From IMG/VR virus record IMGVR_UViG_3300042402_004854, positions 1 to 64,000 of that record: a stretch of DNA of 64,000 bases; one strand, 5' to 3'. Under the pieces are notes generated by a model, which saw nothing but the letters and a program-made list of their open reading frames with translations, did no database searches and was not told the DNA's origin. This DNA is from a virus (lineage: Duplodnaviria > Heunggongvirae > Uroviricota > Caudoviricetes). The translations under genes and the position numbers were made by a program. Shown piece by piece: positions 4,888 through 23,997 of the stretch; position 1 is the first letter of the stretch, and the number at the start of each line of letters is the position of its first letter.

Positions 4888-5852
4888 CATTTTTAGTAAC
4901 AGGCGGCCTAGGCCTTATTGGGCACAACATTGTGCAACGACTACAAGCACGTGAAGAACGGGTTGTGGTAGTGGATACCAAGACCACGTATGGTATTATC
5001 CCACAAGCAGAAATAGACTACTTGATGGCAGAACGTGAAAAAAAGATTGCACCAGACACACCAATCTATCTTTACGACATCACCGATGAGTCAGACATGG
5101 ATTTGCTTATAGGTGAACACCGGCCCCGGGTAATTGTCCACTGTGCAAGTTTTCCCCGACAAAAAGTTGTCAATGCCAACCCTGCGCTGGGTGCAGATGT
5201 CATGATGCGTGGCTTGATCAACTTGCTTGAGAGTGCCAAAAAGTATAAAGTTGAGAGGTTTGTGTACATCAGCAGCAGCATGGTGTACGGAGACTTTGAA
5301 GATGACGTGTTGGAAGATGATGAATGCCGTCCGCAAGGACAGTATGGAATAATGAAACTGTGTGGAGAAGACCTTGTTAAAGATTATAGCCGCCGTTGTG
5401 GTTTTGAGTATGTTATTATCCGCCCCAGTGCTGTATATGGCCCGCTGGACGTCGAAGACCGAGTCGTTGCCAAATTCATGCTCACAGCAATGCGCGGCGG
5501 AGTGCTCCGAGTTAATGGAGCGAACGAAACACTAGACTTTACCTATGTGGATGATGCCGCTGATGGCATTGTTGCTGCCGCAACACGTATCATGTGTCGC
5601 AACATGACATTCAACATTACCAAATCACACAGTGTGAGTCTGCTGGAAGCCGCAGAAATGATTGTGAAGATTGTAGGCAAAGGCACCATCGAAGTGCGTG
5701 ACAAGGATGCAGACTTTCCCAGTCGCGGTGCATTAAATATTGACCGGGCTAGAACCATCTTGGGTTATGACCCCAAAGTAGACGTTGAAGAAGGATTTCA
5801 AAAGTATTATGAGTGGTTAAGTCGATCCACATATTGGAATAAGAATGATTAA
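4884..5852 (+). CDS. NAD-dependent sugar epimerase/dehydratase (extended SDR)
   Basis: N-terminal VTGGLGLIGHNIV (GxxGxxG Rossmann motif). Catalytic YGIMK (YxxxK). 322 aa. Confidence 0.8.
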   Translation: MTFLVTGGLGLIGHNIVQRLQAREERVVVVDTKTTYGIIPQAEIDYLMAEREKKIAPDTPIYLYDITDESDMDLLIGEHRPRVIVHCASFPRQKVVNANPALGADVMMRGLINLLESAKKYKVERFVYISSSMVYGDFEDDVLEDDECRPQGQYGIMKLCGEDLVKDYSRRCGFEYVIIRPSAVYGPLDVEDRVVAKFMLTAMRGGVLRVNGANETLDFTYVDDAADGIVAAATRIMCRNMTFNITKSHSVSLLEAAEMIVKIVGKGTIEVRDKDADFPSRGALNIDRARTILGYDPKVDVEEGFQKYYEWLSRSTYWNKND

Positions 5853-6864
5853 TTCAAATTTTGGATTTACTCCGTTAAAAGAAGTATGGTTGGGAGATTG
5901 TTATCCAGAATTTTTTTACGATCATTTGCCAAACGAAATAGCAGACCCATTTCGGCAAATAACTGAATGGACCAAACAAGATACTAGCAAATTACAAAAA
6001 TTTTTAGAAAGTCGTGGAATAGTTGTTAGACGTCCGGTGTTTTCCTCAATTGATGATTACATCAATCAAAATGATATCTTAGTCAAGCCACCTATATGTC
6101 CAAGAGATCATTATCTTGTTTTAGATAAAACACTTTATAGTTTACACAACAACCTCAAAATAGATCCCTGGGACCACTGGTTAAAACATTATAAATCACA
6201 AGGGTTTGATGTACAGTCTCCTATGAATTTACCTATCAATTGTTTATGTCCTCCTGCGCTGGTTCGTGTTGGGAAGGACTTATATTTAGATCATGACAGT
6301 CATCCTCAGGTGTGGGGATTTATATGTCAGTGGATGGTTGAAGTATCGAAAAAGTACAGAGTCAATGTCTGTTCAACTTCAGGACACAGTGATGGAGTAT
6401 TTTGTCCTGTTGCACCCGGAATAGTCGTTTCAAGTCATTATAAAAATAATTACACTCAAAGTTTCCCCAATTGGGAAGTGTTTGGTATACCTAGTCAGTT
6501 AAATAATTTCAAGCACCTGAAGGATTGGTGGGTCAAGGATCAAGAAATCAACAACAATCAAACATTTAGTCGGCACATACAAACCCAAGCCGCAAATTGG
6601 ATTGGTAATTTTAAAGAGACAGTATACGAAGTCAACATGCTTGTACTTGATGAAAAAAATGTAGTAGCCATGAAAGACTATCCGCCACTGACACAATGGT
6701 TATACGATCGTGGTATTACTGTACACTTTTTTGATTTAAGGACTAGAAGTTTTTGGGACGGCGGATGGCATTGTTTTACATTGGATATTTGTAGAGAAGA
6801 TTCTCAAACAACTGATTTATTTCCAGAACGTGGCGAAAACGGGGTGTATTGGCGACTCAAATGA
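5845..6864 (+). CDS. amidinotransferase-family protein (glycine/scyllo-inosamine amidinotransferase-like)
   Basis: The C-terminus FWDGGWHCFTLDICRED matches the AGAT/StrB1 catalytic-Cys motif GGGFHCWTCDVRRRG. Paralogous to 12379..13419. Confidence 0.7.
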   Translation: MINSNFGFTPLKEVWLGDCYPEFFYDHLPNEIADPFRQITEWTKQDTSKLQKFLESRGIVVRRPVFSSIDDYINQNDILVKPPICPRDHYLVLDKTLYSLHNNLKIDPWDHWLKHYKSQGFDVQSPMNLPINCLCPPALVRVGKDLYLDHDSHPQVWGFICQWMVEVSKKYRVNVCSTSGHSDGVFCPVAPGIVVSSHYKNNYTQSFPNWEVFGIPSQLNNFKHLKDWWVKDQEINNNQTFSRHIQTQAANWIGNFKETVYEVNMLVLDEKNVVAMKDYPPLTQWLYDRGITVHFFDLRTRSFWDGGWHCFTLDICREDSQTTDLFPERGENGVYWRLK

Positions 6865-7952
6865 CAACTACCGGTCTTACTATCCCGTTTACTGGAATAC
6901 GAAAACAGTATAACAATCTCCGCACTGAGATCTTAGACGTCACAGACACAGTGTTGCGTTCGGGACAACTCATGAACGGCAACTATACCTATGAGTTTGA
7001 GGATTGGTTGGCCAGGCGCAACCGTCAGCCCTATGCTGTGACCTGTCACTCAGGCACCCAAGCACTAGAAATCATTGCTGAGTGGATGTTGTTACAAGCA
7101 GGTCGTCCTGATACGCCCACAGTAGCAGTACCCACGCTGACTTATCCTGCCACACTGAACGCATTTGTACGAGCAGGCTGGAACTTGCACATTGTGGACA
7201 CTGACCGATATGGTGTCATGGACATGACCAAACTTAAACACAGCACAGATATCCAGGCCATTTGTGCTGTGGGTCTGTATGGGCAAGCACTCAACGAAAT
7301 GAAACAAAGTGTGTGGTCCTTGACTCACCCCATCATAGAAGATGGCGCACAACACTGGCTCAGCAACAAATGTCAACGTGTAGGCGATTGTGCTATTAGT
7401 TTTGATCCCACCAAAAATCTAGCCAACTATGGCAATGGTGGTGCCATAATCACTGCCAGTCGCAACTTGATGGAGTTTGCTAGAAACTGGGTCAGCAATG
7501 GCAAACGCACCAACCATGCCGAGCCCGGAACCAACAGTAGAATGAGTGAAACGGATTGTGCGCAGATGTTGGTGAAAACACGCTACATTGATCAGTGGCA
7601 ACAACGCAGACGCACCATTGCTTATCACTGGATAGAAATGTTAAAAAAACATCCAGACGTCACTTGTCTAATTGATGATTCAAATCTTGAAACTCATTGC
7701 TTTCACAAGTTTGTGATCAACGTAGACAATCGAGACATTGTGCAAAGGAACATGTCTTTACGCAAGATTGAAACCCGAGTACATTATGCAACACCCATGC
7801 ATGAGTTGCCAGCATATCAACACTATCCTGCGCCTGACTTGCTCAGTGCCGGTAGTAGTTTAGCACGTAGATGTCTTTCACTTCCTATCTATCCTGAACT
7901 GTCAGACCTGGAAGTTGAATATGTTATTGACTCGTTGTTAGACTGCGTTTGA
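6849..7952 (+). CDS. DegT/DnrJ/EryC1-family PLP-dependent sugar aminotransferase
   Basis: N-terminal YEFEDWLARRNRQPYAVTCHSGTQALEI pattern. SFDPTKNL aligns with the SFHxxK PLP-lysine motif. 367 aa (TTG start at 6849 or ATG at 6861). Confidence 0.75.
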   Translation: MATQMTTTGLTIPFTGIRKQYNNLRTEILDVTDTVLRSGQLMNGNYTYEFEDWLARRNRQPYAVTCHSGTQALEIIAEWMLLQAGRPDTPTVAVPTLTYPATLNAFVRAGWNLHIVDTDRYGVMDMTKLKHSTDIQAICAVGLYGQALNEMKQSVWSLTHPIIEDGAQHWLSNKCQRVGDCAISFDPTKNLANYGNGGAIITASRNLMEFARNWVSNGKRTNHAEPGTNSRMSETDCAQMLVKTRYIDQWQQRRRTIAYHWIEMLKKHPDVTCLIDDSNLETHCFHKFVINVDNRDIVQRNMSLRKIETRVHYATPMHELPAYQHYPAPDLLSAGSSLARRCLSLPIYPELSDLEVEYVIDSLLDCV

Positions 7953-10131
7953 CAAACGCATACGTGGCCAACCAATCCCACTCATAACTTTTCTTCAGCG
8001 CCGCAAAGTCGCCCGCAACTGAGTCATAGTACTCTACTCCATCTTCGGCACCTTTGCGACTCCATTGCCCCGGTGTTGAATCAACAGTGAGCCATTTATT
8101 GAGTCTGTGTTCGCTTTCCACGTCAGGTAAACTGGCTTTTAATTTGAGCACTTCACGGAATGCAGTGCGCCAGCACATCCAGTCCGACTCATGATACATG
8201 GCTGTACCGCACACAATGGGCACAACTTCATGTGGTTGGTCTAGTGTGAAGTCCAAGCCCGCGCCTGTGTTCTCCAACACCAACTGTTTATTATACGCAA
8301 TCATGGCTTGGTGACCGTATACAAGTCCATTGATGGGATTGTGTGCATGAAAAATATAGTGCTTGGGTTGTTGCATGCGATCAGGTTGCCATGTCCAGTC
8401 AAAATCCGCAGTGACTTCTAGTTTGGCAAACACAGCAAAGAACCAAGGTGTTGTGCTTTGTCTAGCAGCCTCTTGATATGCTGCCACACGTCCATTGACA
8501 CCCGACACATGATGTATGCGATTCTTGTGGTCTTGTTCTGCTATGAATTTTAAATGTCTAAAGTAAAAGTCGGCATGTATTTCACCATTGCTGATAAACA
8601 CAATGTCCAAGGGCGGATCTTGTAGAGCACGTTGACTTCGATCTATATAAGGATAATCATACAACTGTGTCCGAATGTAAGGCACAGCGGTGCGTGGTAC
8701 TACAACTGTGCCAGCACCGTCACTGATGGGCACAATGGTTTTGGTTTGTTCACGCCACAGTGGCACAACTGCCATGATACCGGGGACATAATCGTGATTG
8801 GTAAATGTAGCAAGTGGACCTGCCCACTCAGTGTGTTTAATTGCTTCAACTTGACTGTCGTTGCTATGCACAATCACAGGCATGGGTCTACGTGGTACAC
8901 GTACATCAACAAAGTTTACATCATACCATTCCAACAGTTCTTTCTTTTCTGCTCTAGCAGCAAATGAGGGCACATGCATGAAGAATGTGTCACCAAACTT
9001 TTGATTGTTGGATCGAAACACATGCAACATTGTGGCCTGCCATTGTTCAGGATGCCAAGAGAAGTCAAAACCAGTGTAATCACAAATGCTGGAGCAAATC
9101 CAAACAAACTCATGTTGTGAACCTATGCTCTTGGCCAGGCGTATTAGTGTATCTCTATAGTTGTCAAAGTAACGCACAATCTTTGTGGTGTTTGGAATTT
9201 TGCCAGTACTGCCACACAAGTGATCTATTTCATATATGGCTGTGGCATTGCTGTCAACCCGCGCACGTATTTGATCCACGTACTTGATTTCTACAGCGCC
9301 AGGCACTGTATAGGTAGGGCCACCAGTGCGTTGGTGTTGCGTGGCAAACTGATATATGTACGGTGGATCACCTGGATCAGGCTGCCATGAAAAGTCCACA
9401 GTGGACTCATCTACGTTGGCAGGCACCGTCCAAGCAGTACGATCTTCCAGCAGTTCTGCTCTTGGCCAGTTCATGTACTTGCGTTCAGTTGCGCCCGGCA
9501 CATGATATTCTACTGTGGGCATTTTTTCTGCTGGCCACCATTGATTACCAAACACATACATGTAGGGTGGATCTCCTGGATCTGGGCACCAACTGCGATC
9601 CCACACACAGTCTACTAACGTATGCCAACGGTTAGCATGTTTTTCTGGCAGTCTTGCTTGAGGCGTGTCCATGTATTTGGTTTGCGTAGCACCTGGTACA
9701 TGATATTCCACTGTGGGCATTACATTACCCGGCCACCACTGATTGCCAAACACATAGTTGTAAGGCGGGTCATGCGGATGTGGAGCCCAAGACGTATCAA
9801 ACTCCGCAGCTTTTACCAAAAATTTGTAAGGCTTGGCATGTGGCCGATTGGGAATTGTCTGAGCATGAAAATGATAGTTATCTGTTGCACCCGATCTAGG
9901 CACAAGGTACGTGCCTGAATGATCATGCCATTGACTAGGCCATGCATGAGTAAATTCGCTTTGCCAAGGCACTGGTTCCCAAAGAAAATCAAAGCCAGTG
10001 TAATCTGCTAAGTATGTGATCCACCAGAAATATCTTGTGCGACTCAAACTCTGCGCATGTTCAAATGACTCCGCTGACTTTTCGTGTGCAAACACACCAG
10101 GTTTTTTTCCTGAATAAAATACATCAAACAT
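7924..10131 (-). CDS. hypothetical Trp-rich tandem-repeat protein (735 aa); possible glycan-binding or glycosyltransferase-associated function
   Basis: Long uninterrupted frame. Contains three to six copies of a ~45-aa module (D/F)FSWxPxPxDPPYxYxFGNQWWP...TVEYHVPGAxxxKYM. Only - strand gene inside the + strand block. Confidence 0.7.
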   Translation of the reverse strand: MFDVFYSGKKPGVFAHEKSAESFEHAQSLSRTRYFWWITYLADYTGFDFLWEPVPWQSEFTHAWPSQWHDHSGTYLVPRSGATDNYHFHAQTIPNRPHAKPYKFLVKAAEFDTSWAPHPHDPPYNYVFGNQWWPGNVMPTVEYHVPGATQTKYMDTPQARLPEKHANRWHTLVDCVWDRSWCPDPGDPPYMYVFGNQWWPAEKMPTVEYHVPGATERKYMNWPRAELLEDRTAWTVPANVDESTVDFSWQPDPGDPPYIYQFATQHQRTGGPTYTVPGAVEIKYVDQIRARVDSNATAIYEIDHLCGSTGKIPNTTKIVRYFDNYRDTLIRLAKSIGSQHEFVWICSSICDYTGFDFSWHPEQWQATMLHVFRSNNQKFGDTFFMHVPSFAARAEKKELLEWYDVNFVDVRVPRRPMPVIVHSNDSQVEAIKHTEWAGPLATFTNHDYVPGIMAVVPLWREQTKTIVPISDGAGTVVVPRTAVPYIRTQLYDYPYIDRSQRALQDPPLDIVFISNGEIHADFYFRHLKFIAEQDHKNRIHHVSGVNGRVAAYQEAARQSTTPWFFAVFAKLEVTADFDWTWQPDRMQQPKHYIFHAHNPINGLVYGHQAMIAYNKQLVLENTGAGLDFTLDQPHEVVPIVCGTAMYHESDWMCWRTAFREVLKLKASLPDVESEHRLNKWLTVDSTPGQWSRKGAEDGVEYYDSVAGDFAALKKSYEWDWLATYAFVKRSLTTSQ
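9262..9999 (-). repeat. in-frame tandem repeat region encoding W/P/Y-rich ~45-aa modules
   Basis: Protein positions ~45-290 of the 735-aa ORF. Copies DTSWAPHPHDPPYNYVFGNQWWPGNVMPTVEYHVPGATQTKYM, DRSWCPDPGDPPYMYVFGNQWWPAEKMPTVEYHVPGATERKYM and DFSWQPDPGDPPYIYQFATQ...TYTVPGAVEIKYV. DNA copies are diverged; compare 9540-9620 with 9700-9790. Confidence 0.6.
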
Positions 10132-11251: not shown

Positions 11252-12392
11252 AATATATCCTGCGCTGGCACGCCATCAAGCTGCACCTTACACACAGGCA
11301 TGGCGCGAGTTTGGTCAACATTGGCCGCATACCATTCCCATTCGACTACAAGAATATTGTGACCACCATAATATCAAAATCAACATCTATAATGTTCAAG
11401 ATCAGTTGCCCAACAACACATTTTATCCTGTTGGCTTAGGATTTTTTAATTTTGATATTGACTACTTTGAACTCATGAGCAGTGAGATCCGCCAGGCCTT
11501 GTGTGAACAGCGTGTGCGTGTGTTGTTTTACTATCATGAAGGTGACAATCCTGCACGTATCAAACTTCAACTAGACAAATTGGCCAGAAATCATCGATTG
11601 CCAACCGACTGTTATGTGTTTGTCAGTGCCAACACCGCTGCCAAACAGTTAAAGAACTTTGTGTACTTTACAGACTTTGAGATTTGGTATTATCAACGCA
11701 ATCGTGCTAGTCCTGCACTAAAAATACATTCGGAGCCGAGAGAGCGTGAATTTACTGTGCTTAACAGACTGCACAAATCATGGCGTGCATTGGCCATGGC
11801 AGATTTAAAAAGTCTTGAGTTGCTAGATAACTCATATTGGAGTTACTGTGAGTCTGGTGTGTTTGATGATGCAAAGTGCCCGATTGAAATTGATGCTATT
11901 GCCGGACTACGCACTGCTACTGAAGAGTTTTTAAAATCAGCCCCGTACATCAGTGATGAGTTGGATTTTGATCAACGCAATGATCACAGCACACTTGTGC
12001 CCAAGTACCATGTCAACAGTTATTGCAACATTGTGATGGAAACACATTTTGATGCTGATCAAAGTGGAGGTGCATTTTTAACTGAAAAAACATTCAAGCC
12101 TATCAAACACGGACAACTGTTTTTCATAGCGGGACCAGCAGGCAGTTTACAAGTGTTACGTGACTTGGGGTATCGTGTGTTTGATCATATACTGGACAAC
12201 AGTTATGATCTGGAAACTGATCACACACAACGTTGGCGGGCATTGACCCGAGCCATATACTTTGCTCAACCCGAACTGCCCCGACTGTTTGAACAGGCTC
12301 GAGCTGACATAGAACACAACCAACAGTTATTTCAAGCCACAAAGACCGATCGTTTAAATAGTTTGATCAAGGACATCAATGAACACCATTAA
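11211..12392 (+). CDS. GT10-family glycosyltransferase paralogue 2
   Basis: FLTEKTFKPIKHGQLFFIAGPAGSLQVLRDLGYRVFDHILDNSYD; overlaps the previous gene by 41 nt. Confidence 0.6.
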   Translation: MSLNLIADQVVRGKIYPALARHQAAPYTQAWREFGQHWPHTIPIRLQEYCDHHNIKINIYNVQDQLPNNTFYPVGLGFFNFDIDYFELMSSEIRQALCEQRVRVLFYYHEGDNPARIKLQLDKLARNHRLPTDCYVFVSANTAAKQLKNFVYFTDFEIWYYQRNRASPALKIHSEPREREFTVLNRLHKSWRALAMADLKSLELLDNSYWSYCESGVFDDAKCPIEIDAIAGLRTATEEFLKSAPYISDELDFDQRNDHSTLVPKYHVNSYCNIVMETHFDADQSGGAFLTEKTFKPIKHGQLFFIAGPAGSLQVLRDLGYRVFDHILDNSYDLETDHTQRWRALTRAIYFAQPELPRLFEQARADIEHNQQLFQATKTDRLNSLIKDINEHH

Positions 12393-13419
12393 CTCTTATA
12401 CCAGCTGGCAACCACTTGAAGAAGTTATTGTAGGTCGTGCTTACACCCCAGACTATTTTGATTTTATTGAAAATGCTCAAGTGCGCAATCAATTACAACA
12501 GATTCTCTCTGAGACTGAAGAAGACTTGGCCAACTTGCAAAAGACCATTGAGACTTATGGTGCAAAAGTACGCAGGCCCAAGCTACCCGACAAATACAAT
12601 TTTCAACGTGACCAAATGAAGGGCAACGGTGCACCACTGCCACCACTTACCCCAAGGGACTGGCAGATCACCCTGGGAGATAAACTGTTACGTGTGTTGT
12701 CTATTCCAGAATTAGATTCACTGTGCAACGAGTACGAAGCAGCACAACCTGGTAGTGTGATCAATCCACACGGTCCCACAGGCTGGGACGAAAACTGTAT
12801 CCTTAACCAAGCGTCAGCATCATGCATTGTACGTGTGGGACGTGATGTGTTCTTTGACAACTCAGATTTTTTACGTCCTGATCAGACTCGGTGGATCGTG
12901 GATCATGTGCTAGGACCAGAGTATCGCATACATGAAGCCATTACAGACGGTCATGGTGATGCGGTGTTTGCTATATTGAAACCTGGTGTGTTATTGAGTT
13001 CAAAACACGATGTTAACTTAGACTTAGCACGTGACTTTCCGGGATGGGATGTTTGCAAAATTTGGGATAGTAGTATCTGGGCCGCCATGGAAGTTGGCAA
13101 GTTCAAGTATGAACAAAGCCCGAGTGCTTGGTATGTACAAGGACAAACTCCCACACCAGAGTTTACAGACTTTGTGAACACTTATCTAACCAAGTGGACT
13201 GGATTTGTTGCTGAAACTGTGTTTGATGTCAACTGTTTGGTGCTGGATGAGTCACATGTTATCTTCTCAGCATACAACCGAGAAGTGTTTGACTACTGTC
13301 GCAAGCATAAGATTGAACCTATTATCTCAGAACTGCGTCACAGTTATTTCTGGGATGGTGGTATTAGTTGCTGTACGCAAGACATTCGACGCCGTGGCGG
13401 ACTTGAAACTTATCTCTAA
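12379..13419 (+). CDS. amidinotransferase (AGAT/StrB1-like) paralogue 2
   Basis: The C-terminus VLDESHVIFSAYNREVFDYCRKHKIEPIISELRHSYFWDGGISCCTQDIRRRGGLETYL aligns closely with the human AGAT C-terminus VLMLDEKRV...[24 protein letters not shown]. Confidence 0.8.
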   Translation: MNTINSYTSWQPLEEVIVGRAYTPDYFDFIENAQVRNQLQQILSETEEDLANLQKTIETYGAKVRRPKLPDKYNFQRDQMKGNGAPLPPLTPRDWQITLGDKLLRVLSIPELDSLCNEYEAAQPGSVINPHGPTGWDENCILNQASASCIVRVGRDVFFDNSDFLRPDQTRWIVDHVLGPEYRIHEAITDGHGDAVFAILKPGVLLSSKHDVNLDLARDFPGWDVCKIWDSSIWAAMEVGKFKYEQSPSAWYVQGQTPTPEFTDFVNTYLTKWTGFVAETVFDVNCLVLDESHVIFSAYNREVFDYCRKHKIEPIISELRHSYFWDGGISCCTQDIRRRGGLETYL

Positions 13420-14903
13420 CTGAAAACTTTTACACCATACAGTTTTTCAAACCGATCTGCATCTGCTCGATCGTTGACCATGGGCTCGCCACGTATGTTC
13501 AAACTGGTGTTCAGCAACATAGGACAACCAGTTATTGAATGCCAATACTCCAACAACTGTCTTATTCCTGATCCGCCCGCCTCCACCGTTTGTACTCTAC
13601 TGGTGCCATCAACATGACATATAGCAGGGTAAACGTCAGGTTGGCGACAACGAGCGACTGACTGCATATAATTGTGAGTATGCCAGCCAGGCTGCATGTC
13701 AAAGTAGTCATTAGCCAATTCAGCCAGTACCACAGGGGCGAAGGGTCTGAACTTTTGTCTGCGTTTGATTTCATTTACTCTGTCCTTGATTTCTGCACCA
13801 CGGGGGTCTGCAAGTAGGCTTCGGTTACCCAACGCTCTAGGACCGAATTCAGCACGGCCAGAGGCCACTCCAACAATGCCAGTGTCAAGTAGAGTACTGA
13901 CAATACGATCAACAGGATAAGGGCCAGGGATATTGTGACCAAGGTAAGCATTACGCCAATGCAACCTTTTGCCGTACGCAAGGGCAGCGGCTCCGAGGCT
14001 GCTTCCGGCATCGCCGGGGTTGGGCATGATCCAGATGTTTTCAAAGTATTTTCCTAGTCGTCTATTGGCCAAACAGTTGAGTGCAACGCCACCTTGATAC
14101 ACAAGATTTGTTGACCAGCCAAAATCTCTGGCCCGGCGCATGATATTACCAATCAAGCGTTCCAACATTCGTTGAGCAGCAGCGGCAATATCCACATGAT
14201 CAAGACCGCCCATGAAGGTGTCGCTGACTCCAGTGTGTAAGTTCTGTTTGAACTCTGCAGTATTTGGATCACTGATCAACACTGCTTCCATGAGATCATG
14301 ATAATGATCATCGCCATAAGCAGCCATACCCATGGTGATGTATTCTTCGTCTAGTGGGTGTAGGCCCACACGCTTAGTAATTGCACTATAAAAGAGACCC
14401 AGGCTGTGAGGGTATCGTTGTCCCCACAGTCGACGATATCTTGCTCGTCCTTGCTTGTCATACTCTGCTCCCCAGATTGTGATTGTGTCCCATTCACCTA
14501 TGGCATCGATTACCACAACTGTGGCCCGGTCGTATGGTGAAGTTTGAAAGCCACCAGCGGCATGTGAAAGATGATGATTGTAACTGTGATAGTGTTTGAT
14601 ATCCTGCCACCGGGCATGACCTATCTGCTGATGCACTATGCTTTTTACTCGTAACTTGTTCCACTCTATACCTTGGCCAGCATACAGTTGACGCAGTTGC
14701 TTGGCCCAAGGACGCTCATAATGTGCTACAGTATCAATAGGGTTGTAGTTTTCAAGTTCACGTATAAATGCACTGTCAAAGTCAGCGTCATTTTTGCGTT
14801 TGCTGTAGCGTTCTGCATGGCCGGCAAATAATATGTCGCCAGAGCGATTGATCACTGTGGCCGCGGCATCATGGAACCCAGCACTGATACCTAGTATGTT
14901 CAT
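13416..14903 (-). CDS. NodU/CmcH/TobZ-family O-carbamoyltransferase
   Basis: N-terminal MNILGISAGFHDAAATVI (Kae1/HypF-like carbamoyltransferase N-domain). C-terminal NTSLNIRGEPMVNDRADA motif. 495 aa. Confidence 0.85.
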   Translation of the reverse strand: MNILGISAGFHDAAATVINRSGDILFAGHAERYSKRKNDADFDSAFIRELENYNPIDTVAHYERPWAKQLRQLYAGQGIEWNKLRVKSIVHQQIGHARWQDIKHYHSYNHHLSHAAGGFQTSPYDRATVVVIDAIGEWDTITIWGAEYDKQGRARYRRLWGQRYPHSLGLFYSAITKRVGLHPLDEEYITMGMAAYGDDHYHDLMEAVLISDPNTAEFKQNLHTGVSDTFMGGLDHVDIAAAAQRMLERLIGNIMRRARDFGWSTNLVYQGGVALNCLANRRLGKYFENIWIMPNPGDAGSSLGAAALAYGKRLHWRNAYLGHNIPGPYPVDRIVSTLLDTGIVGVASGRAEFGPRALGNRSLLADPRGAEIKDRVNEIKRRQKFRPFAPVVLAELANDYFDMQPGWHTHNYMQSVARCRQPDVYPAICHVDGTSRVQTVEAGGSGIRQLLEYWHSITGCPMLLNTSLNIRGEPMVNDRADADRFEKLYGVKVFS

Positions 14904-15004
14904 TTGTAGATGAATGGGTCTCGTTTGCGAAGTTCTTTTAGTTTTTTACGATAGCGTATTTCCAGGATAATTTGATCGTATATTTTTTTCAACCATTTAA
15001 ACAT
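14900..15004 (-). CDS. conserved 34-aa small ORF (MFKWLKKIYDQIILEIRYRKKLKELRKRDPFIYK), translationally coupled upstream of carbamoyltransferase
   Basis: ATG at 15004, preceded by AAGGA 7 nt upstream. The TGA overlaps the carbamoyltransferase ATG (ATGA). Paralogue of 15683..15784 with conservative substitutions. Confidence 0.55.
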   Translation of the reverse strand: MFKWLKKIYDQIILEIRYRKKLKELRKRDPFIYK

Positions 15005-15686
15005 AATTTTTCCTTAAGACGTAAGTTACCAACCCACCGTTTTTAAAATTGAACAGTGCTGGCAACCAAAAATTTTGTAACATACTAGGGTAGGCTTTTT
15101 TGAGTTCAAAATCAGGTAGCATCGATTTAATCTTATCAAAGGTAAAACTCAACTCGAACGGATGTAATTCTTGATCTTGATACAATGTATGGCTATTGTA
15201 GTTTATTTTAAATACTTTTTTTAGTATTTTTCCTGCAGGATGATAAAGCCCTAAAATTATAGTACCACCTGGACGTGTCAGTTCACGTAGCTTTGTTATC
15301 ACTGTCATGTAGTCAGGAATATGGTGTAAAACACCTTGGCATACAACCACATCAAACGTTTCTGCAAGATTGAGTTGAGTTAAATCTTGCCGGTTGAATT
15401 CTACGTTGTTAATGTTGTGTTGTTTTTTAAATTGTTTCGCATAGTCAACTGAGTTTGAAAAATCCACGCCCATAAATTTTGATTGTGGATGTCTCAGCGC
15501 CATTAAATTTGTTATCAATCCGGTACCACAGCCAGCATCCAATACTGATTGATTGTTGTCAATTTGTGATTCGATAATGCGCAGATATCGGTTTTCAATT
15601 GGATGTCCGTACGCCAACAATTGCTCTATACTGTAAGGTCCTGGGAACGGAACCTCATTGTAAAACTCTTTGACTGTTTGTTTCAT
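14997..15686 (-). CDS. class I SAM-dependent methyltransferase
   Basis: VLDAGCGTGLITNLMA (motif I, GxGxG). 229 aa. Confidence 0.8.
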   Translation of the reverse strand: MKQTVKEFYNEVPFPGPYSIEQLLAYGHPIENRYLRIIESQIDNNQSVLDAGCGTGLITNLMALRHPQSKFMGVDFSNSVDYAKQFKKQHNINNVEFNRQDLTQLNLAETFDVVVCQGVLHHIPDYMTVITKLRELTRPGGTIILGLYHPAGKILKKVFKINYNSHTLYQDQELHPFELSFTFDKIKSMLPDFELKKAYPSMLQNFWLPALFNFKNGGLVTYVLRKNYV

Positions 15687-15784
15687 TTATAAAGGTAGGG
15701 ATCTTGTTTTGCTAATTCTCTTAGATGTTTTCTATACCGTATTTCTAGGGCGATTCGATTCCAAAGTCTGCGTATCCATTTCAT
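15683..15784 (-). CDS. conserved 33-aa small ORF (MKWIRRLWNRIALEIRYRKHLRELAKQDPYLYK), translationally coupled upstream of methyltransferase
   Basis: The ATG at 15784 overlaps the stop of 15781..16806 (ATGA). AAGGAG 6 nt upstream. The TGA overlaps the methyltransferase ATG. Paralogue of 14900..15004. Confidence 0.55.
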   Translation of the reverse strand: MKWIRRLWNRIALEIRYRKHLRELAKQDPYLYK

Positions 15785-16806: not shown

Positions 16807-18076
16807 TGTTGTTCCACCATTCTAGCACCGCGGGACGACCAGCCAGTATTTCAGCCATGGTGATCGGTTGTGTGCGTATACTTTCTAATTGTAACACACG
16901 TGCCTTGCCTTTTGCAATGCCTTTGGAGTACTGATCCGGCCATTGCTCAGCAAATGTGGGCCGTTGTTTTAGTTGTAATAACACATCACGTAGCGCACCG
17001 TCCACTTGTGGCACAAGTTCATCGATCCACGGATCTAGCAATGACCTGGGCATGGACAAGGGACTCATCACAATGTCTGGTGAGAACGAGAACATTACTT
17101 TAGCAAGGACTTCGACTCCGAATTCCTGGGCAAGTTGTCTAATGTGTGTAACTTCGAACATTCCGGGCAGAGTGAGCGTAAAGTCAATTCGTACTTGACG
17201 TCTGTTACGTTGGATCTCAACTGCTTGACCAAAATGCTCAAGCCACTGATCATACTCAAGGCCTGTTCTAATGTATTCACCAATTGCGCCCGTGCCGTCG
17301 AGACTTGCACATATCTGCCAATCGCGCAGCCCGCTGAGAATATCGCGATATAAGTTAACACCTCGATAATCCACTCTGGATAAATTTGTATTGTATCTAG
17401 CATATACCTTTGGCCCGTCCCCTAATTCAACTATGCGTCGCATATAACGCCAATGTTGTTCGTACATCAAGGGCTCGCCACCTACCCAGTATACTTCTTC
17501 AACACGATGCTGTTCTACTGCTTCGGCAAACTCAGCCTCGATCTGACTGTCCTGAAATGCTGAGATATCTCGACGCACTTCAGGACGCATCCAGGTGTTC
17601 TTGGGATTGGACCAGTCAACCATGTTGTGTTGTTTCTGTTCGGTTTCCCAACTACTACTCAGCATGTCACCACATGTACGACATTTGAAATTGCACAGGT
17701 TGGAGAATCTATAATCCCAACTCACCGGCTGCATTGTGGTGTAGCCTGCTGTATCAGTGGTTTCCCAGATGTCAGGATACTTATGTTTGAACAACTGCCA
17801 AAAATATGTGCGGTAAACATTAGTGTTCAGCAGTTTGTCATTGCACACTTCGCACTCAGGTAGAGTTTCTCCAGCCATCATTCTACTGCGCACACTCCGC
17901 ATGTGCGGCGAGTTCCAGTGTTGTTCCAGTGTGATGGGAATGTATCGACCAGTGCCTGCGGCTGTGTCTATGTACTGCTCAAAGTTCTGTGCAGGTTCAC
18001 GACTCGCACAACACATGCGCCGTTCTGTTTGTGGACTCAAATAGGTATGCACCCAAGGTGCCATGCATAGGCTCAT
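16799..18076 (-). CDS. radical SAM enzyme, Cys/Trp-rich N-terminal extension (family member 1)
   Basis: CNFKCRTCGDMLSSSW (CxxxCxxC then SSxW). N-terminal CMAPWVHTYL...CC...CEVC. Confidence 0.75.
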   Translation of the reverse strand: MSLCMAPWVHTYLSPQTERRMCCASREPAQNFEQYIDTAAGTGRYIPITLEQHWNSPHMRSVRSRMMAGETLPECEVCNDKLLNTNVYRTYFWQLFKHKYPDIWETTDTAGYTTMQPVSWDYRFSNLCNFKCRTCGDMLSSSWETEQKQHNMVDWSNPKNTWMRPEVRRDISAFQDSQIEAEFAEAVEQHRVEEVYWVGGEPLMYEQHWRYMRRIVELGDGPKVYARYNTNLSRVDYRGVNLYRDILSGLRDWQICASLDGTGAIGEYIRTGLEYDQWLEHFGQAVEIQRNRRQVRIDFTLTLPGMFEVTHIRQLAQEFGVEVLAKVMFSFSPDIVMSPLSMPRSLLDPWIDELVPQVDGALRDVLLQLKQRPTFAEQWPDQYSKGIAKGKARVLQLESIRTQPITMAEILAGRPAVLEWWNNIA

Positions 18077-19008
18077 GACTTTTCTGCATAATGTAAAATA
18101 GGCTCCACAATCTGTTTTAAAATTTGATTAATTACAAATTCACGATTGTAAAAATGATCTCGATTGTGTTGCAATCGACGCAAAGTTTCTGCGTCATGGT
18201 CTTTTATAATTATTTCAGATAATATTTTAATTACAGCATCGCGACGTTGGTCTACATCCACAATTTCGTCGTAGCTTTCATCCCACAAATTATCAAATGT
18301 TTCAAAACCCCATGATTTTAGTGTTCGTAATACACCACGATTTCCATATATTATTAATGGATGTTGGAATGCCAGAGGCTTCATGGTTTTTTCTGTAATG
18401 AATATAGGTGTGTATTTGCTCAGTGGACACACAACAGTCTCTACCACCATGCTGCAATACGTCTGATCATACCATTCAGGATCGAAGCGCCTCTGTGTAT
18501 TCCAATCAGTCATATCTCCATCATTAGGAAGTTGGCGGCCTGTACCAACATAACTCCACATCATGTTTTTTAGTAAATGCTGCACAGACTTTACAAACTC
18601 AGTTCTGTGCGGTCTTAATAGGTTCATGGGCATCAGCGCCTGATATACAGGCCTGTACTGTGGTTGGTATCGATCATATTCAAGGTGTTGATACCAGAGA
18701 CTTTCATTATACCAAAACCAAGAATCGCAATGCACTTGGTGCGTATTTGGTATAAGATCTAATATGGCTTCCCATAATGTGTCTATAATAACACGAAACC
18801 CACGATCTACTAACTCTTCCACGGTAACAGGCAACACATTGTTATAGTTAGGAAAGTCTAAACAATTTAAATAAAACCCAGTTCCCGGGTCATATGTACG
18901 TGATGGATCCCAGGGCTCAAATTCTAAATATTGATCAAAAATAGGACGTAACCAATCGCTACCAAATGAACTTATGGGTTTGGCATGTACTATTTTGAAT
19001 CGTTTCAT
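18073..19008 (-). CDS. GT10-family glycosyltransferase paralogue 3
   Basis: SMVVETV...FITEKTMKPLAFQHPLIIYGNRGVLRTLKSWGFETFDNLWDESYDEI. Confidence 0.6.
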   Translation of the reverse strand: MKRFKIVHAKPISSFGSDWLRPIFDQYLEFEPWDPSRTYDPGTGFYLNCLDFPNYNNVLPVTVEELVDRGFRVIIDTLWEAILDLIPNTHQVHCDSWFWYNESLWYQHLEYDRYQPQYRPVYQALMPMNLLRPHRTEFVKSVQHLLKNMMWSYVGTGRQLPNDGDMTDWNTQRRFDPEWYDQTYCSMVVETVVCPLSKYTPIFITEKTMKPLAFQHPLIIYGNRGVLRTLKSWGFETFDNLWDESYDEIVDVDQRRDAVIKILSEIIIKDHDAETLRRLQHNRDHFYNREFVINQILKQIVEPILHYAEKS

Positions 19009-19009
19009 G

Positions 19010-20233
19010 TTAGTTTTGGAAATAGTAATTAATCAGTGAGGCCATTTCTGGAGATACTGCTCTAAAATCTGTTGATCGCTTGCGATCTAAATCTGCAGTT
19101 TTCATGCGCAACATAAATCCATCTGTACTTGCACCACGATTCATAAAGTCAATGATGCGATCAAATTCCTCACGATACTGCGGTGGTATATCTGCTGAAC
19201 GCAAGTATTCTGTAATACCAGTTTTGGCAGTGTCTGGCAATGTGGCTATTGAAAAGTGCCAAGGATCATGCATCATATTCCAGTATACAAAATTAAAACT
19301 TTCTTTGTTTTGGTCAATCCATTGTGCCACTTGATCTAGATAACGTACATTGAACACGTTTACTGTGGTACAAATTTGGAGAACTATATTGCTGTGACAT
19401 TCTTTGAGGTCTCTAAAACGATCTAAATTTGTGCAGACTTCTTGCCAGTCTGCATTGGTGCGTTGATATTCAAATCTCTCACCAATATCATCAATGCTAA
19501 ATGCAATTTCAACAGTTTTAAAATGGCGCCAAATTGCTTCACCACGTTCAGGCCAGTGTGTGCCATTGGTATTGTAGTGTATTTCAACTTGGTGCGCAAT
19601 ACCGCAATCAACAATGCCTTGCAACATGTCAAAGTGTTCGTCAATCATGAATGGTTCACCGCCAGTGAATTCAATATAGCGTATATCTGTTAATACTGTG
19701 TTAATTTCATCCCAGAATTTTTTATTCTCTCTAGGCCATGCGCCGGCTCGAAGCATGAAGTAATGATAATTGTTCTTTTTATCTACGTCCCGGGGCAGTG
19801 CATTTAGTTCTTCTGTGGCGTATTGACTGCTCGACCATGACCCGCAGATACGGCATTTTAAATTACAGATGTTGCCTAGTTTCAAATCCAAAAACATTAG
19901 CGGTTTGGCGTCTGCTGTCCACTCCTGATCAGGTACTATGTGTTTGAGTCTGTTTAACGTGTGCATGCGTTTGCTGGTACGACCTGAACGTTCCTCACTC
20001 CAACAACGCCTACATGTTTGCGGTTTTTCGCCGGCCAAGAACTTTTCTCGTAACTGTCGCATGTGGTTGCTGTTTTGTACATCAATAAACGATGCTGTAG
20101 AGAGTTCAAACTTTTCGCCATTGTTATTTAATATTTCATCATCAGCAAGACAACACGGTCGCACAGTACCAATAGGACTGGCTTCAAGGCTGACCCAGGG
20201 CAGTACACAAAATTTATCATGTGGAATATTCAT
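19010..20233 (-). CDS. radical SAM enzyme, Cys/Trp-rich N-terminal extension (family member 2)
   Basis: CNLKCRICGSWSSSQY. N-terminal FCVLPWVSLEASPIGTVRPCC...CRRCW. Confidence 0.75.
   Translation of the reverse strand: MNIPHDKFCVLPWVSLEASPIGTVRPCCLADDEILNNNGEKFELSTASFIDVQNSNHMRQLREKFLAGEKPQTCRRCWSEERSGRTSKRMHTLNRLKHIVPDQEWTADAKPLMFLDLKLGNICNLKCRICGSWSSSQYATEELNALPRDVDKKNNYHYFMLRAGAWPRENKKFWDEINTVLTDIRYIEFTGGEPFMIDEHFDMLQGIVDCGIAHQVEIHYNTNGTHWPERGEAIWRHFKTVEIAFSIDDIGERFEYQRTNADWQEVCTNLDRFRDLKECHSNIVLQICTTVNVFNVRYLDQVAQWIDQNKESFNFVYWNMMHDPWHFSIATLPDTAKTGITEYLRSADIPPQYREEFDRIIDFMNRGASTDGFMLRMKTADLDRKRSTDFRAVSPEMASLINYYFQN
20202..20233 (-). repeat. 32-bp direct repeat copy 1 (covers start codon and first 9 codons of rSAM member 2)
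   Basis: agtacacaaaatttatcatgtggaatattcat is 31/32 identical to 20950-20981. Confidence 0.8.
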
Positions 20234-20925
20234 AGTTTTGTTATAAATTGTTTATTGGTTTCAGTTAAAAAATATTGCTGCTCTGACATCAACCACTTGC
20301 AAGCTTTGTCAAAATTTTCTTTAACCAAAAATGGAATTTTAATATTTTTCAATGTGCAAATTGCATGGCACCAGGCAAGCCAGGGGATATTATTAGTTAT
20401 ATCAATCCGGTCTAATGTCCAACAAGATTTTTTATAATTGTCAATGGATTCAAGTACAAATCTTGTGTTGGGGGTGTGTTTTACTTTGTACCGATCTAAG
20501 CATGCAAAAACTTGTTGGGCAAATATTGTTGGGTTGTCAAACATCAGATCAGCATCAATTATAATGTTGTCAAGATAATCTTGAAAAAACTGCCCGTTGG
20601 TTTCCATGCGCCAACGTGCATTGTTAGACAATGCATACAGTAATTCTGCATTTTTAAGATTTGCCATACTTCCCTCAGTGGTGTAGGATTTATAATAGGC
20701 ATTCAAATAAGTTACGAATTGTGATTTAAAACTTGCAAAAGATCCTACTACCATGCCTTGAGGATTGTTTTCATGACTAAAATAAATTTGATTACTTTTT
20801 GGGTATTTGTGAAAGTTTTTAGACGTGGGCACTATATCAAAATTATTTGTTTCCAATGAATACATTAGATTGGATAGCCAATTCCCTCCCTGACCAGTGG
20901 GATATGTAATACAAATTTTGGTCAT
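20230..20925 (-). CDS. hypothetical protein (231 aa), flanked by 32-bp direct repeats
   Basis: ORF track; N-terminal ITYPTGQGGNW. No family recognised. Confidence 0.55.
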   Translation of the reverse strand: MTKICITYPTGQGGNWLSNLMYSLETNNFDIVPTSKNFHKYPKSNQIYFSHENNPQGMVVGSFASFKSQFVTYLNAYYKSYTTEGSMANLKNAELLYALSNNARWRMETNGQFFQDYLDNIIIDADLMFDNPTIFAQQVFACLDRYKVKHTPNTRFVLESIDNYKKSCWTLDRIDITNNIPWLAWCHAICTLKNIKIPFLVKENFDKACKWLMSEQQYFLTETNKQFITKL

Positions 20926-20949
20926 TTAAGCACTGTCAATTCAGAAGAT

Positions 20950-20981
20950 AGTACGCAAAATTTATCATGTGGAATATTCAT
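20950..20981 (-). repeat. 32-bp direct repeat copy 2 (encodes orphan MNIPHDKFCV fragment then stops)
   Basis: agtacgcaaaatttatcatgtggaatattcat. Its ATG overlaps the TAA of the B12-rSAM gene (TAATG), exactly as copy 1 abuts the stop of 20230..20925. Confidence 0.8.
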
Positions 20982-22741
20982 TAACAATCCAGTAACATTG
21001 TTTTTAATTCAAGATATTTGTCATTATCAAATTGTATATCATCATTTATGTTTGCATGCATGTTTGTAATTTTTTCAATCAGCGTTGGGTTAGCCATGAG
21101 ATGTGCATGTATCAACGTTTGTATTTCCACGGGCATCAATACGGGCTCTGTTCCCAATAACCCATAATGATCAGGGTAAACCTTGATGGCTAATGGTGTG
21201 CCAAAAAAATTGTCTATGTCTGAACGATGTAATCGTAGACTGTCTATCAATTGATTGAGTTCAGGAGTGTTTCTACTCATGGGCAGTCTCAACGCTGTGG
21301 CCACTTCTTGTAAAATCAGTCTGCGACGACACCTTTCAAAAAATGTCAATTCTGGATTGGTTTCTAATAGCCAGAGTATGTCTGATCCTCGACCAAAATT
21401 CAACCCAATTTGTTCTTGCATGTTCCACAGCGGGGTCTGTGGATGATGAGTGTATGGAGTTCCCAGAGTAATTTTGTACACTGTACCTGATGCACAATAT
21501 TGTTGATATCGTACAAACATGTTCACGGTGTCTAAAAAATCCGCCCAGGTTTCTGTGGGATAACAACTAAAAAATAGCAACACACAAACAATACCACGAC
21601 GATCAAATTCTGCTAGTTCATGATCAATATCTGCTGTAGTAAATTGTTTTTTCATGTGATCACGAACTGCATCACTACCGCTTTCCACACCAATAGTTAA
21701 CCCTTCTCCGCCGCTGAGTTTGAGCAGGTCATAGTATTCATCGTTGAGCACGTTTGATCTAGATCTAGTGATGTATTGCCCTACCCATTTGATAGCACTG
21801 TCTGGGTTGGCAGTGTTGTGCTGAGCCAATGTTGAAATAAAATTTTGAAATGCTGTCAAGCTACCATTCACCAAGCTGTCGCTCATGTAAAATTTTTTAA
21901 CACCATGGCGATGATACAAATGAATCATTTCCCGTGCAATATGGTCACCTGATCTAAATTTAAATTTAGGCCACAGCACTGGTATATCACAAAACGTACA
22001 TTTACGAACACAACCTTTACTGCCAGTGATGGGAATTATAGGTTCGTTTACATAATTATATTCTGTTAATTCGTAGTCATCAAAATCTACAAATGGTATT
22101 GCTTCAATGTCAATTTTTTCAACACTACCAGTTATACTGGATTCGGTTGATCCCGACAACAAATCTACAATAGCTTGCTCTCCATCGCCTTGTATAATTG
22201 AATCTACTACTTGATAAAACAACAATGTCTCGCTGAAATTTTTGTGAGGGTATGACCCAAAAAAACTTTTCATTTTATTGACAAATCGCCTGTGATCAGG
22301 GCCTAATGCATAACTACTGGCTCCTCGACCACCTAATACAATACGAATATCAGGCAATAGTCGTTGCACTTCTAAACACAAAGCCAAAGTGGCTTTGTGA
22401 CTTTTATAACTAAACACACTGATCCCTAGCCAACGTGGATTTTTTTCAGCAATTAGTTTGATGCTGATATCCAGCCATTGACGTATTAACTCTAAATCAT
22501 TGTCAAAAAATGCCAGCACAGGATCTATGGTATCATTTACATGTGTGCTTACGTTTTCAAAATTGTATTGTACTTGAAAAAATCGGTCGTTAGTTTTACA
22601 AATCTTTTTCAGTTCTAAATTTAAGTCAAGAGTGTTTGCAGTAAATCCTGCTGCAATTGCACAGCTTTTAATTACAGCAGGACTACTGGGTGGATATTGT
22701 AAGTCCAGCACAGGAACTGAGACTACTAATAAATCTAGCAT
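20981..22741 (-). CDS. large radical SAM enzyme, probable B12-binding (class B) type, paralogue A
   Basis: 586 aa. CVRKCTFCDIPVLW (CxxxCxxC) about 230 aa from the N-terminus. The N-terminal ~200 aa is consistent with a cobalamin-binding domain preceding the rSAM core. Paralogous to 27803..29620. Confidence 0.6.
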   Translation of the reverse strand: MLDLLVVSVPVLDLQYPPSSPAVIKSCAIAAGFTANTLDLNLELKKICKTNDRFFQVQYNFENVSTHVNDTIDPVLAFFDNDLELIRQWLDISIKLIAEKNPRWLGISVFSYKSHKATLALCLEVQRLLPDIRIVLGGRGASSYALGPDHRRFVNKMKSFFGSYPHKNFSETLLFYQVVDSIIQGDGEQAIVDLLSGSTESSITGSVEKIDIEAIPFVDFDDYELTEYNYVNEPIIPITGSKGCVRKCTFCDIPVLWPKFKFRSGDHIAREMIHLYHRHGVKKFYMSDSLVNGSLTAFQNFISTLAQHNTANPDSAIKWVGQYITRSRSNVLNDEYYDLLKLSGGEGLTIGVESGSDAVRDHMKKQFTTADIDHELAEFDRRGIVCVLLFFSCYPTETWADFLDTVNMFVRYQQYCASGTVYKITLGTPYTHHPQTPLWNMQEQIGLNFGRGSDILWLLETNPELTFFERCRRRLILQEVATALRLPMSRNTPELNQLIDSLRLHRSDIDNFFGTPLAIKVYPDHYGLLGTEPVLMPVEIQTLIHAHLMANPTLIEKITNMHANINDDIQFDNDKYLELKTMLLDC

Positions 22742-23997
22742 AGTGCCTTTAATTCCGGAATAGTTTCCATTATGTTTTCTCTCCTGATGTTATCCAACTC
22801 ATGTGTTTTACGCCAGAATGTATCTATCAAGTGTGTGTTGTCTGTGGCCATCATAAACTTGACGGCGCTTTCAAATCCTGTTGTGGCACGTTGCAAAGGA
22901 TCTTGATCACGCAACCACATGATGTGATTCAGATACCTTGTGCCCAGTTCTTGTTTGTATTCAGCTGGTGCAATATCTATTCTGTAGTATGCAGGATCTT
23001 GCAATATATTTACGTTCAAATCTTGTGGTCGGATTAGGCCTTTTTCTACCCATTCACGATGGAACTCAGGCAAATGGTGTGCATTTAATATGCTCAACGT
23101 AGGGCTGATATAAAAGTCTACTTCTGGACATATCTCTAACATGTCTCTGCGATTTTGTTCTACCACTGCCCAATCTGTACCTTTGCGAATGTACTCTCCT
23201 CGTGTGCCCGAGTCGTCCAAACTTGCTCCCACTGCCACACTATCAAACTGTTTCCAGTATTCAAATACGCTTTTACCTCGGAGTTCAGTGTGTGTAAAGT
23301 TTGTGTTGTAGATCAATCGTACATCAAAACGTTTTCTTCGAACTAACTCCTCCAAGATGTTGTAGTGTTCTTCCATCAGCAAGGGTTCACCGCCAGCAAA
23401 GTAAATTTGCTCTACATAGTCCAAATGTGGTTCCAATTGTTCCCACATGTCTAGTTCAGTGCGCCCTGCGTAATTTAATACTGTGTTGCGATCTTTCCAG
23501 TTACCGCCGGCTAGTTTCGCCTGATCTTGGTACCATTGACTGCTGAATATATGCCCACAACTGCGGCATTTTAGATTGCACAAGTTACTGAAACGAATAT
23601 CCCAGTACGTCATTTCAAACGGATTTGTGTTAAGTTTTTTAATATGATGCCCGTGATGTTTGTTTGCACTCTTTCGTCCACTGAAGAATCCATTTGCTTC
23701 TTGCTCATAGCAACGACCGCAGGCAGCATTGGGTGTTTCCGTCAACATGTCCTGGCGCAGTTGTTGCATGGGCACATCAGTCCAGATTTCTGCCAAGGTA
23801 TTTTTACGGCAGTTGCCCACTTGTCCCACACTCATCTCAGCATGGCAGCATGGGTATGCTTCTCCTGTGGGATAGGCGTGCAAATGTATCCAAGGATACA
23901 TGCAAAATGTTTTTGATTCAGTCAGCAAGAATTGTTCACGTTGTGTGAGTTCAGTAGGGCGTACTAAATCGGTGCTGTTATACTTGTATTGAGTCAT
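22735..23997 (-). CDS. radical SAM enzyme, Cys/Trp-rich N-terminal extension (family member 3)
   Basis: CNLKCRSCGHIFSSQW. N-terminal FCMYPWIHLHAYPTGEAYPCC...CGRCY. Confidence 0.75.
   Translation of the reverse strand: MTQYKYNSTDLVRPTELTQREQFLLTESKTFCMYPWIHLHAYPTGEAYPCCHAEMSVGQVGNCRKNTLAEIWTDVPMQQLRQDMLTETPNAACGRCYEQEANGFFSGRKSANKHHGHHIKKLNTNPFEMTYWDIRFSNLCNLKCRSCGHIFSSQWYQDQAKLAGGNWKDRNTVLNYAGRTELDMWEQLEPHLDYVEQIYFAGGEPLLMEEHYNILEELVRRKRFDVRLIYNTNFTHTELRGKSVFEYWKQFDSVAVGASLDDSGTRGEYIRKGTDWAVVEQNRRDMLEICPEVDFYISPTLSILNAHHLPEFHREWVEKGLIRPQDLNVNILQDPAYYRIDIAPAEYKQELGTRYLNHIMWLRDQDPLQRATTGFESAVKFMMATDNTHLIDTFWRKTHELDNIRRENIMETIPELKALC

Follow-up and report, generated by a model that had tools for sequence, protein, structure and literature searches.

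In this study, we analysed a 64,000-nt stretch of phage DNA (positions 1 to 64,000 of the IMG/VR record IMGVR_UViG_3300042402_004854, Caudoviricetes), hereafter the window, in which a 32-bp direct repeat flanks g231, a gene for a 231-aa protein that lies in an island rich in radical S-adenosylmethionine (rSAM) enzymes. We conclude, with a probability of roughly 0.85, that this feature is a recombination scar that was left when the g231 cassette was stacked beside the gene for a B12-binding-type radical SAM enzyme (B12-rSAM). On the minus strand, the genes follow each other in the order rSAM3 (22735..23997), B12-rSAM (20981..22741, 586 aa), a 19-codon orphan open reading frame (ORF; 20922..20981), g231 (20230..20925) and rSAM2 (19010..20233, 407 aa). 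Both rSAM3 and rSAM2 are N-terminal-twitch radical SAM enzymes, which match NF033640 over its full length above the curated cut-off of 170 bits (388 and 345 bits, respectively), and they anchor the upstream and the downstream side of a slot in which B12-rSAM is the resident cassette of the window lineage and g231 is the stacked one. The orphan, MNIPHDKFCVLSSELTVLK*, bridges the stop of B12-rSAM to the start of g231; its TGA overlaps the ATG of g231 as ATGA and the g231 stop overlaps the ATG of rSAM2 in the same manner. We recovered the repeat, both of the parental arrangements, a chimeric joint within the orphan, a scar of the reciprocal order in a sister lineage and evidence that the arrangement persists in nature.

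The two copies of the repeat, at 20202..20233 (AGTACACAAAATTTATCATGTGGAATATTCAT) and 20950..20981 (AGTACGCAAAATTTATCATGTGGAATATTCAT), are identical at 31 of the 32 positions and both open with ATG when the minus strand is read. There was no third match in the window at up to three mismatches and none in 100 dinucleotide-preserving shuffles. Copy 1 is the first 32 nt of the functional rSAM2 (ATG, nine codons and 2 nt), while copy 2 is an orphaned rSAM2 head, the ATG of which overlaps the B12-rSAM stop as TAATG, an overlap that the intact rSAM2 shows in exactly this form in the nearest relatives of the B12 type. The first-pass annotation, which was made from the sequence alone, had therefore rightly described a 31/32 direct repeat around g231 and an orphan that begins on the TAA of B12-rSAM. 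It was also correct in assigning the ATG and nine codons to the repeat, but not the five upstream nucleotides that it added, because the bases 5' of the ATG are not shared (..aaaactATG vs ..ttgttaATG) and the repeat extends 2 nt further at its 3' side instead.

A sequence that recurs at the start of a gene could be a regulatory or translational signal, as in the case of the mobile promoter stem-loops of T4-type phages, which are a recurrent motif at gene starts, and the position of copy 2, at a start codon that overlaps a stop, is typical of coupled genes. However, only two copies exist in the window, and the 32-nt head was found once per locus in 63 related loci, always as the coding N-terminus of rSAM2 (the head MNIPHDKFCVL is kept across the relatives); it is duplicated solely in the two lineages that carry a double cassette. 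A motif at many gene starts, which the first-pass annotation had named as the observation that would speak against its proposal, was thus not what the relatives revealed. The scar region was also not enriched in promoters or terminators, with 7 promoter-like sites compared to 5.3 ± 2.1 expected and no terminators in scans that used consensus sequences only, and its RNA fold showed no structure (z = -0.29). We consider that the repeat being such a signal is extremely improbable.

The family to which the window belongs consists of large uncultured phages that are represented by IMG/VR and metagenome contigs of up to ~360 kb, several of which are from freshwater samples. In the GenBank phages, there was no DNA match and no match to the g231 protein, and the protein relatives of rSAM2 were only ~22-27% identical; a literature search for these phages returned nothing specific. 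Since scans of IMG/VR with single-protein patterns for g231 and B12-rSAM gave no matches, an alignment-based scan was required. The search with rSAM2 yielded 59 IMG/VR loci at 63-83% aa identity, on contigs of up to ~350 kb, that share the conserved backbone rSAM5-g370-rSAM4-rSAM3-rSAM2-rSAM1-g341-carbamoyltransferase.

The first of the parental arrangements (A, rSAM3-B12-rSAM-rSAM2, in which the head occurs once and g231 is absent) was present in 11 loci; B12-rSAM itself has many homologues. In four of the loci (L060-L063), B12-rSAM is 92-93% identical to that of the window at the aa level and its stop overlaps the ATG of rSAM2 as TAATG, while in the seven others (L070-L076, all from IMG/VR), the order is the same and the identity is 66-74%. 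These are the relatives with a single repeat copy and without g231 for which the first-pass annotation had suggested a search. When the window was compared with L060 (a 360-kb contig) using blastn, the aligned blocks ended exactly at 20950 (85.5% identity) and restarted at 20233 (84.1%), nucleotides 7761-7792 of L060 aligned to both of the repeat copies and the intervening 748 bp of the window were skipped. The second parental arrangement (B, rSAM3-g231-rSAM2) was found in L054 and in the P0122 contig, and both junctions of g231 in L054 are seamless ATGA overlaps. Close homologues of g231 are rare; outside the window's own cluster, there were three, with an identity of 57-64%.

The orphan carries the imprint of both arrangements. 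Its 3' part, TCTTCTGAATTGACAGTGCTTAAATGA (SSELTVLK*, 20922..20948), the TGA of which overlaps the g231 ATG, resembles the 3' end of an rSAM3. It matches the rSAM3 tail of L068, a genome of the sister lineage that is described below, in 19 of 27 nt by hand count (ATTCCTGAATTGGCGGTATTAAAATGA, IPELAVLK*), agrees with it in frame and in the ATGA overlap, and is placed as in the relatives that have the order rSAM3-g231-rSAM2; the window's own rSAM3 ends in IPELKALC*. Using a position-specific scoring matrix (PSSM) that was built from 36 distinct rSAM3 tails with the ATGA left out, the remnant ranked 15th among 127,956 window positions and first among the 590 ATGA sites (score 4.8; the next site scored -5.9), and the true rSAM3 tail of the window took the top rank overall. 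By its sequence, the orphan is best read as nucleotides 1-32 of an rSAM2 that were fused to the final ~24 nt of an rSAM3; the 4-5 nt closest to the breakpoint may be ambiguous filler or a diverged part of the rSAM3 tail. What the first-pass annotation regarded as a later insertion of g231 into a B12-rSAM/rSAM2 junction is hence in agreement with the relatives that lack g231, but it was no simple insertion, as the insert carries a 3' remnant of rSAM3. In the same scan, the second-best site of the PSSM was 12703..12725 (+), ATTCCAGAATTAGATTCACTGTGC, with a score of 15.8. It lies within the ORF 12379..13419, which has no Pfam match, and could represent either a further remnant or a C-terminal motif that is paralogous.

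In the scenario that we propose, the window lineage would descend from a genome of the type rSAM3-B12rSAM-rSAM2 that underwent an unequal or illegitimate crossover, or a template switch, with a close relative arranged as rSAM3-g231-rSAM2. Nucleotide 32 of the rSAM2 of the first genome would have been joined to a point ~24-27 nt before the end of the rSAM3 of the second, which would then have ended in ..CTGAATTGACAGTGCTTAAATGA. The product would hold both cassettes in tandem with a 60-nt chimeric mini-ORF, an rSAM2 head followed by an rSAM3 tail, between them. It is the chimeric joint that leads us to an unequal or illegitimate crossover (or a template switch) between A-type and B-type genomes, and the locus has the traits that distinguish a scar: the repeat stems from an adjacent gene, relatives carry it once at an intact junction and the former context of the insert is preserved in the joint. 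Between lineages, only 2% of the head pairs reach 31/32, which makes the two window copies more alike than 98% of the pairs; either the parents were very close genomes or the recipient's own head was copied. The single C/T difference between the copies gives no clue to the parent of either one, as each of the two bases is found with either type of arrangement.

The event could also have run in the opposite direction, with the double-cassette state being ancestral and the B12|rSAM2 genomes arising by a recombination between the repeats that removed g231. Such a recombination would restore precisely the clean TAATG junction that L060-L063 have, and the ambiguity between insertion and deletion was also raised for a similar case in mycobacteriophages (PMC3029335). 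Against this, a head-plus-tail chimera could form only after the B12|rSAM2 and rSAM3|g231 junctions already existed, and the direction was therefore one of stacking rather than an ancestral state. Moreover, the B12|rSAM2 genomes span 66-93% B12-rSAM identity and the window nests beside L060-L063, as judged from identity values and not from a tree, whereas the double arrangement of the window is confined to one lineage at 99.9-100% identity. A general loss of g231 is thus improbable in our view, even though single genomes might have reverted by deletion. The B12-rSAM/rSAM2 junction that the first-pass annotation called ancestral is so for the window lineage; further back, the slot descends from an rSAM3|rSAM2 junction, which is retained in 48 of the 59 loci.

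Short repeats are a source of mis-joins and, as the window comes from an assembly of the metagenome type, the joint might have been created by the assembler. Typical reads are, however, longer than a 32-bp repeat, and four contigs (L064-L067) from separate samples and assemblies (JGI 3300002835 and 3300001282, Logan SRR27419807 and ENA ERZ28593777) match the window at 99.9-100% identity over the B12-orphan-g231-rSAM2 scar, one of them with a single-nucleotide polymorphism elsewhere. Two further contigs that encode the identical g231 protein show the same 55-nt gene spacing, so that six contigs from different samples share this protein. Because the same scar was present in four independent assemblies, an artefact is excluded for practical purposes.

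A second product, with the cassettes in the opposite order, was found in a sister lineage. In L068 (a 204-kb contig), L069 and L150, the order is rSAM3-g231-[67 nt]-B12-rSAM2. The 67 nt open on the g231 stop (ATGA) with ATGAATATACCACTTGATAAATTTTGCGTACTG, a remnant of the rSAM2 head, which probably extends to about nucleotide 45, judging from the likeness of L-F-W-N-S to L-P-W-V-S, and the breakpoint seems to lie deeper in the head than in the window, at ~nt 33-48. Together, they form an in-frame orphan, MNIPLDKFCVLFWNSAGICKTLSIC*, which ends at a TAG 4 nt into B12-rSAM (ATGCTAG), the stop that is used by rSAM3 in A-type genomes. Compared with a degenerate consensus of the head, the remnant of L068 has one mismatch and the head of its own rSAM2 has three, as would be expected if the remnant was derived from the other parent. 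The g231 proteins of the window and L068 are 61% identical while the flanking genes are 83-88% identical; since g231 is far more diverged than its neighbours, the sequences point to the two stackings as independent acquisitions. One of the three loci, L069, looks degraded at 4743..9120: its rSAM3 is split into 84 and 344 aa, its rSAM2 is without the first ~41 codons and its B12-rSAM breaks off after 468 aa, with fragments behind it. The locus may truly be decaying, or the damage may stem from a sequencing or assembly error.

Several observations weigh against the stacking of g231 as we describe it. No donor genome, which should have the context rSAM3-g231-rSAM2 and a g231 that is more than 64% identical, was found; the closest outside the window lineage reaches 64%. 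The rSAM3 remnant could be matched to relatives only, and its best ungapped identity of 16/23 has a p of ~1e-4 to 5e-4, which is not overwhelming. Furthermore, the part of the L068 scar that is proximal to B12-rSAM has no detectable likeness to an rSAM3 tail (a hand count gave 10/23, which is not significant), so that its symmetry with the window scar is only partly shown. Finally, the similarity of the window to its B12-type relatives did not change across the junction when the identity of rSAM2 and B12-rSAM was followed in sliding windows, in which we saw only the ordinary domain-wise conservation that was also present in the comparison with L001. Because of this flat similarity, the right-hand crossover could not be placed, and a single unequal crossover, which we infer alongside a short patch insertion and a template switch as possible mechanisms, is indistinguishable from the other two.

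The scar sits in a slot that is evidently multi-allelic. In its empty state (48 of the 59 loci), the stop of rSAM3 overlaps or abuts the start of rSAM2, with ..ATTCCAGAATTGGCAGCATTAAAATGAAY.. (IPELAALK*) as the typical junction, and ten further loci each hold a single extra gene, of at least six kinds and 195-535 aa in length, from which the multi-allelic nature of the slot follows. B12-rSAM is one of several alternative cassettes at this place. Single cassettes are seamless, with a start that overlaps the rSAM3 stop and a stop that overlaps the rSAM2 start, and scars occur in the stacked pairs only; the seamless swaps would presumably be due to homologous recombination in the conserved flanking genes. 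Different arrangements co-occur within single samples (3300059473 and 3300071516).

Direct repeats around one gene of low GC content, in a slot that hosts many alternative cassettes, would also be compatible with the insertion of a mobile element, be it a transposon, a homing endonuclease gene or an integron-like cassette; the 32 bp would then be an attachment site or the result of target-site duplication. We regard this as even less probable than the deletion that was discussed above. A length of 32 bp far exceeds the usual target duplications, the predicted fold of g231 is sulfotransferase-like and not that of a transposase, integrase or endonuclease, and there are no inverted repeats at the cassette ends. 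In addition, the insert carries a piece of a neighbour gene from its former context, the other cassettes of the slot have no repeats and the breakpoint in L068 apparently differs. With regard to an integron-like or other site-specific system, no common site was found at every cassette boundary and no recombinase in a search that was confined to the island. The scar is best described as a case of phage mosaicism by illegitimate recombination near gene boundaries and not as a transposon, an integron cassette, a homing element or a regulatory repeat.

Two side observations concern related rearrangements. In the contig P0008 (ENA ERZ21845800), a B12-rSAM of 591 aa that is 87% identical to that of the window lies in another context, in which 35 nt separate it from a preceding 567-aa SPASM-domain gene and its other end shares 17 nt with the radical SAM gene that comes next; the same slot may have been rearranged here in yet another way. 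A second variable slot is present at rSAM2|rSAM1 (18073..19008 in the window). In the loci L001-L059, many of the relatives have the two genes directly abutting, while in the window and some other loci, this place is taken up by a 311-aa gene, by additional paralogues of rSAM2 or by other inserts.

The closest precedent is mycobacteriophage Island3, in which gene 68 shares a duplicated end of ~50 bp with gene 67 (PMC3029335). As in that mosaic junction, an extra gene that is absent from the relatives is flanked by a short duplicated piece of its neighbour, the breakpoints lie at gene boundaries and the function of the genes is preserved. Unlike in Island3, both of the parental arrangements and a product of the reciprocal order were recovered, the scar has two parts (the head of the downstream gene and the tail of the upstream one), which fixes the direction of the event, and an unbroken chain of overlapping ORFs was kept through it. 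The g231 cassette also resembles a moron in that it lies between genes that are adjacent in the relatives and has a GC content below that of its neighbours. Morons, however, typically bring their own promoter and terminator (PMC3029335), whereas g231 has neither in detectable form, lies inside a translationally coupled operon and is an allele of a multi-allelic slot. The exchange of modules at conserved boundary sequences is described by the module model of Susskind and Botstein and by the linker sequences of lambdoid phages (see refs 21-22 of PMC3029335). In accordance with it, a conserved rSAM3 tail and rSAM2 head flank every cassette and could supply the homology for swaps such as those in the ten loci of the 59. 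The scar, by contrast, joins a head to a tail that is not homologous to it, and the stacking was therefore illegitimate and not driven by boundary homology. The current concepts of phage mosaicism are unchanged by this case; its value is in its completeness rather than in a new kind of event. It is an unusually complete natural record, in which the two parental arrangements, both of the reciprocal stacked products and the molecular joints can all be recovered from metagenomes. It also tells apart two modes over which there is usually only argument: the seamless swapping of single cassettes, and infrequent illegitimate joins by which cassettes become stacked and a chimeric scar stays behind.

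No Pfam or NCBIfam family was found for g231, which belongs to a family of ~136 representative sequences. Its GC content of 0.335 is the lowest of the island, in which the accessory cassettes range from 0.335 to 0.379 compared to 0.42-0.48 for the conserved genes. A model that was calculated with AlphaFold2 from 79 sequences (an input of three sequences gave a predicted local distance difference test score of 36) tentatively indicates a sulfotransferase-like fold. A conserved G-x-G-G-x-W-L loop (residues 11-17; PTGQGGNWL in the window protein) occupies the place of the loop that binds 3'-phosphoadenosine-5'-phosphosulfate in sulfotransferases; that loop is of the PKxGTTW type with a catalytic Lys, while the loop of g231 has no Lys. 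K79 is invariant and H51 nearly so. If the model is correct, g231 probably contributes a tailoring reaction to the synthesis of the island product; this would mean that a sulfotransferase-like enzyme can be added to a radical-SAM-rich phage island with the coupled architecture left intact. The island encodes at least seven radical SAM enzymes, of which two were confirmed to be of the N-terminal-twitch type (NF033640) and two are of the B12-binding type, along with a GDP-mannose-dehydratase-like sugar epimerase, a carbamoyltransferase and a methyltransferase. The second B12-type enzyme, the sugar epimerase/dehydratase, the carbamoyltransferase and the methyltransferase together suggest that the product is a modified sugar or a similar compound.

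From 34237 to 13416 on the minus strand, the island forms an operon-like chain of ~20 ORFs that overlap or are at most 1 nt apart, with almost no Shine-Dalgarno-like motifs. The chain has three larger gaps, and in each of them a mini-ORF forms a bridge, beginning on the end of the preceding gene or overlapping it and stopping on the start of the next: the orphan and two ORFs of ~33 aa on either side of the methyltransferase cassette. Termination-reinitiation, i.e., translational coupling, is possible where a stop codon overlaps a start codon, as in ATGA and TAATG. With its ATG on the stop of the gene before it and its own stop on the start of the gene after it, the orphan has the same configuration as nearly every junction of the island. 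The likeliest present role of the orphan, even though we regard it as rather doubtful, would be that of a relay that keeps g231 translated and makes the stacked cassette expressible. A ribosome would end B12-rSAM at TAATG, restart on the orphan, end at ATGA and restart on g231; what would set this apart from known coupling is that the relay would be a non-functional scar peptide. If so, only the illegitimate joins that yield a relay would survive, which would explain why both of the stackings have an in-frame orphan that opens on the stop before it and closes at the start of the next gene or just beyond it, and might also account for the ~33-aa ORFs in the other two gaps. The support for a relay is weak, which counts against this part of our interpretation: that two of two scars are in frame would occur by chance at ~1/9, and the conservation of the L068/L150 scar (67/67 compared to 96.7% overall) has a chance of ~0.1.

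The region around the methyltransferase (14997..15686) was initially a candidate for another direct repeat because L060 aligned to it twice. It was rejected, as the sequences are two diverged copies of the ~33-aa ORF, at 14900..15004 (-), MFKWLKKIYDQIILEIRYRKKLKELRKRDPFIYK, and 15683..15784 (-), MKWIRRLWNRIALEIRYRKHLRELAKQDPYLYK. In both copies, the stop forms an ATGA overlap with the start of the gene downstream. Copy a opens on the stop of g341 (ATGA as well), and the final codons of the methyltransferase gene are overlapped by copy b. In the relatives, this ORF is present in one copy (L061), in two tandem copies (L060) or on either side of a methyltransferase of the locus's own (L033). They might serve as mini-ORFs in coupling, be scars of an older date or encode precursor-like peptides for the radical SAM enzymes. 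Elsewhere in the window, 41370..55901 (-) holds an ORF of 4843 aa that is followed by one of 1144 aa.

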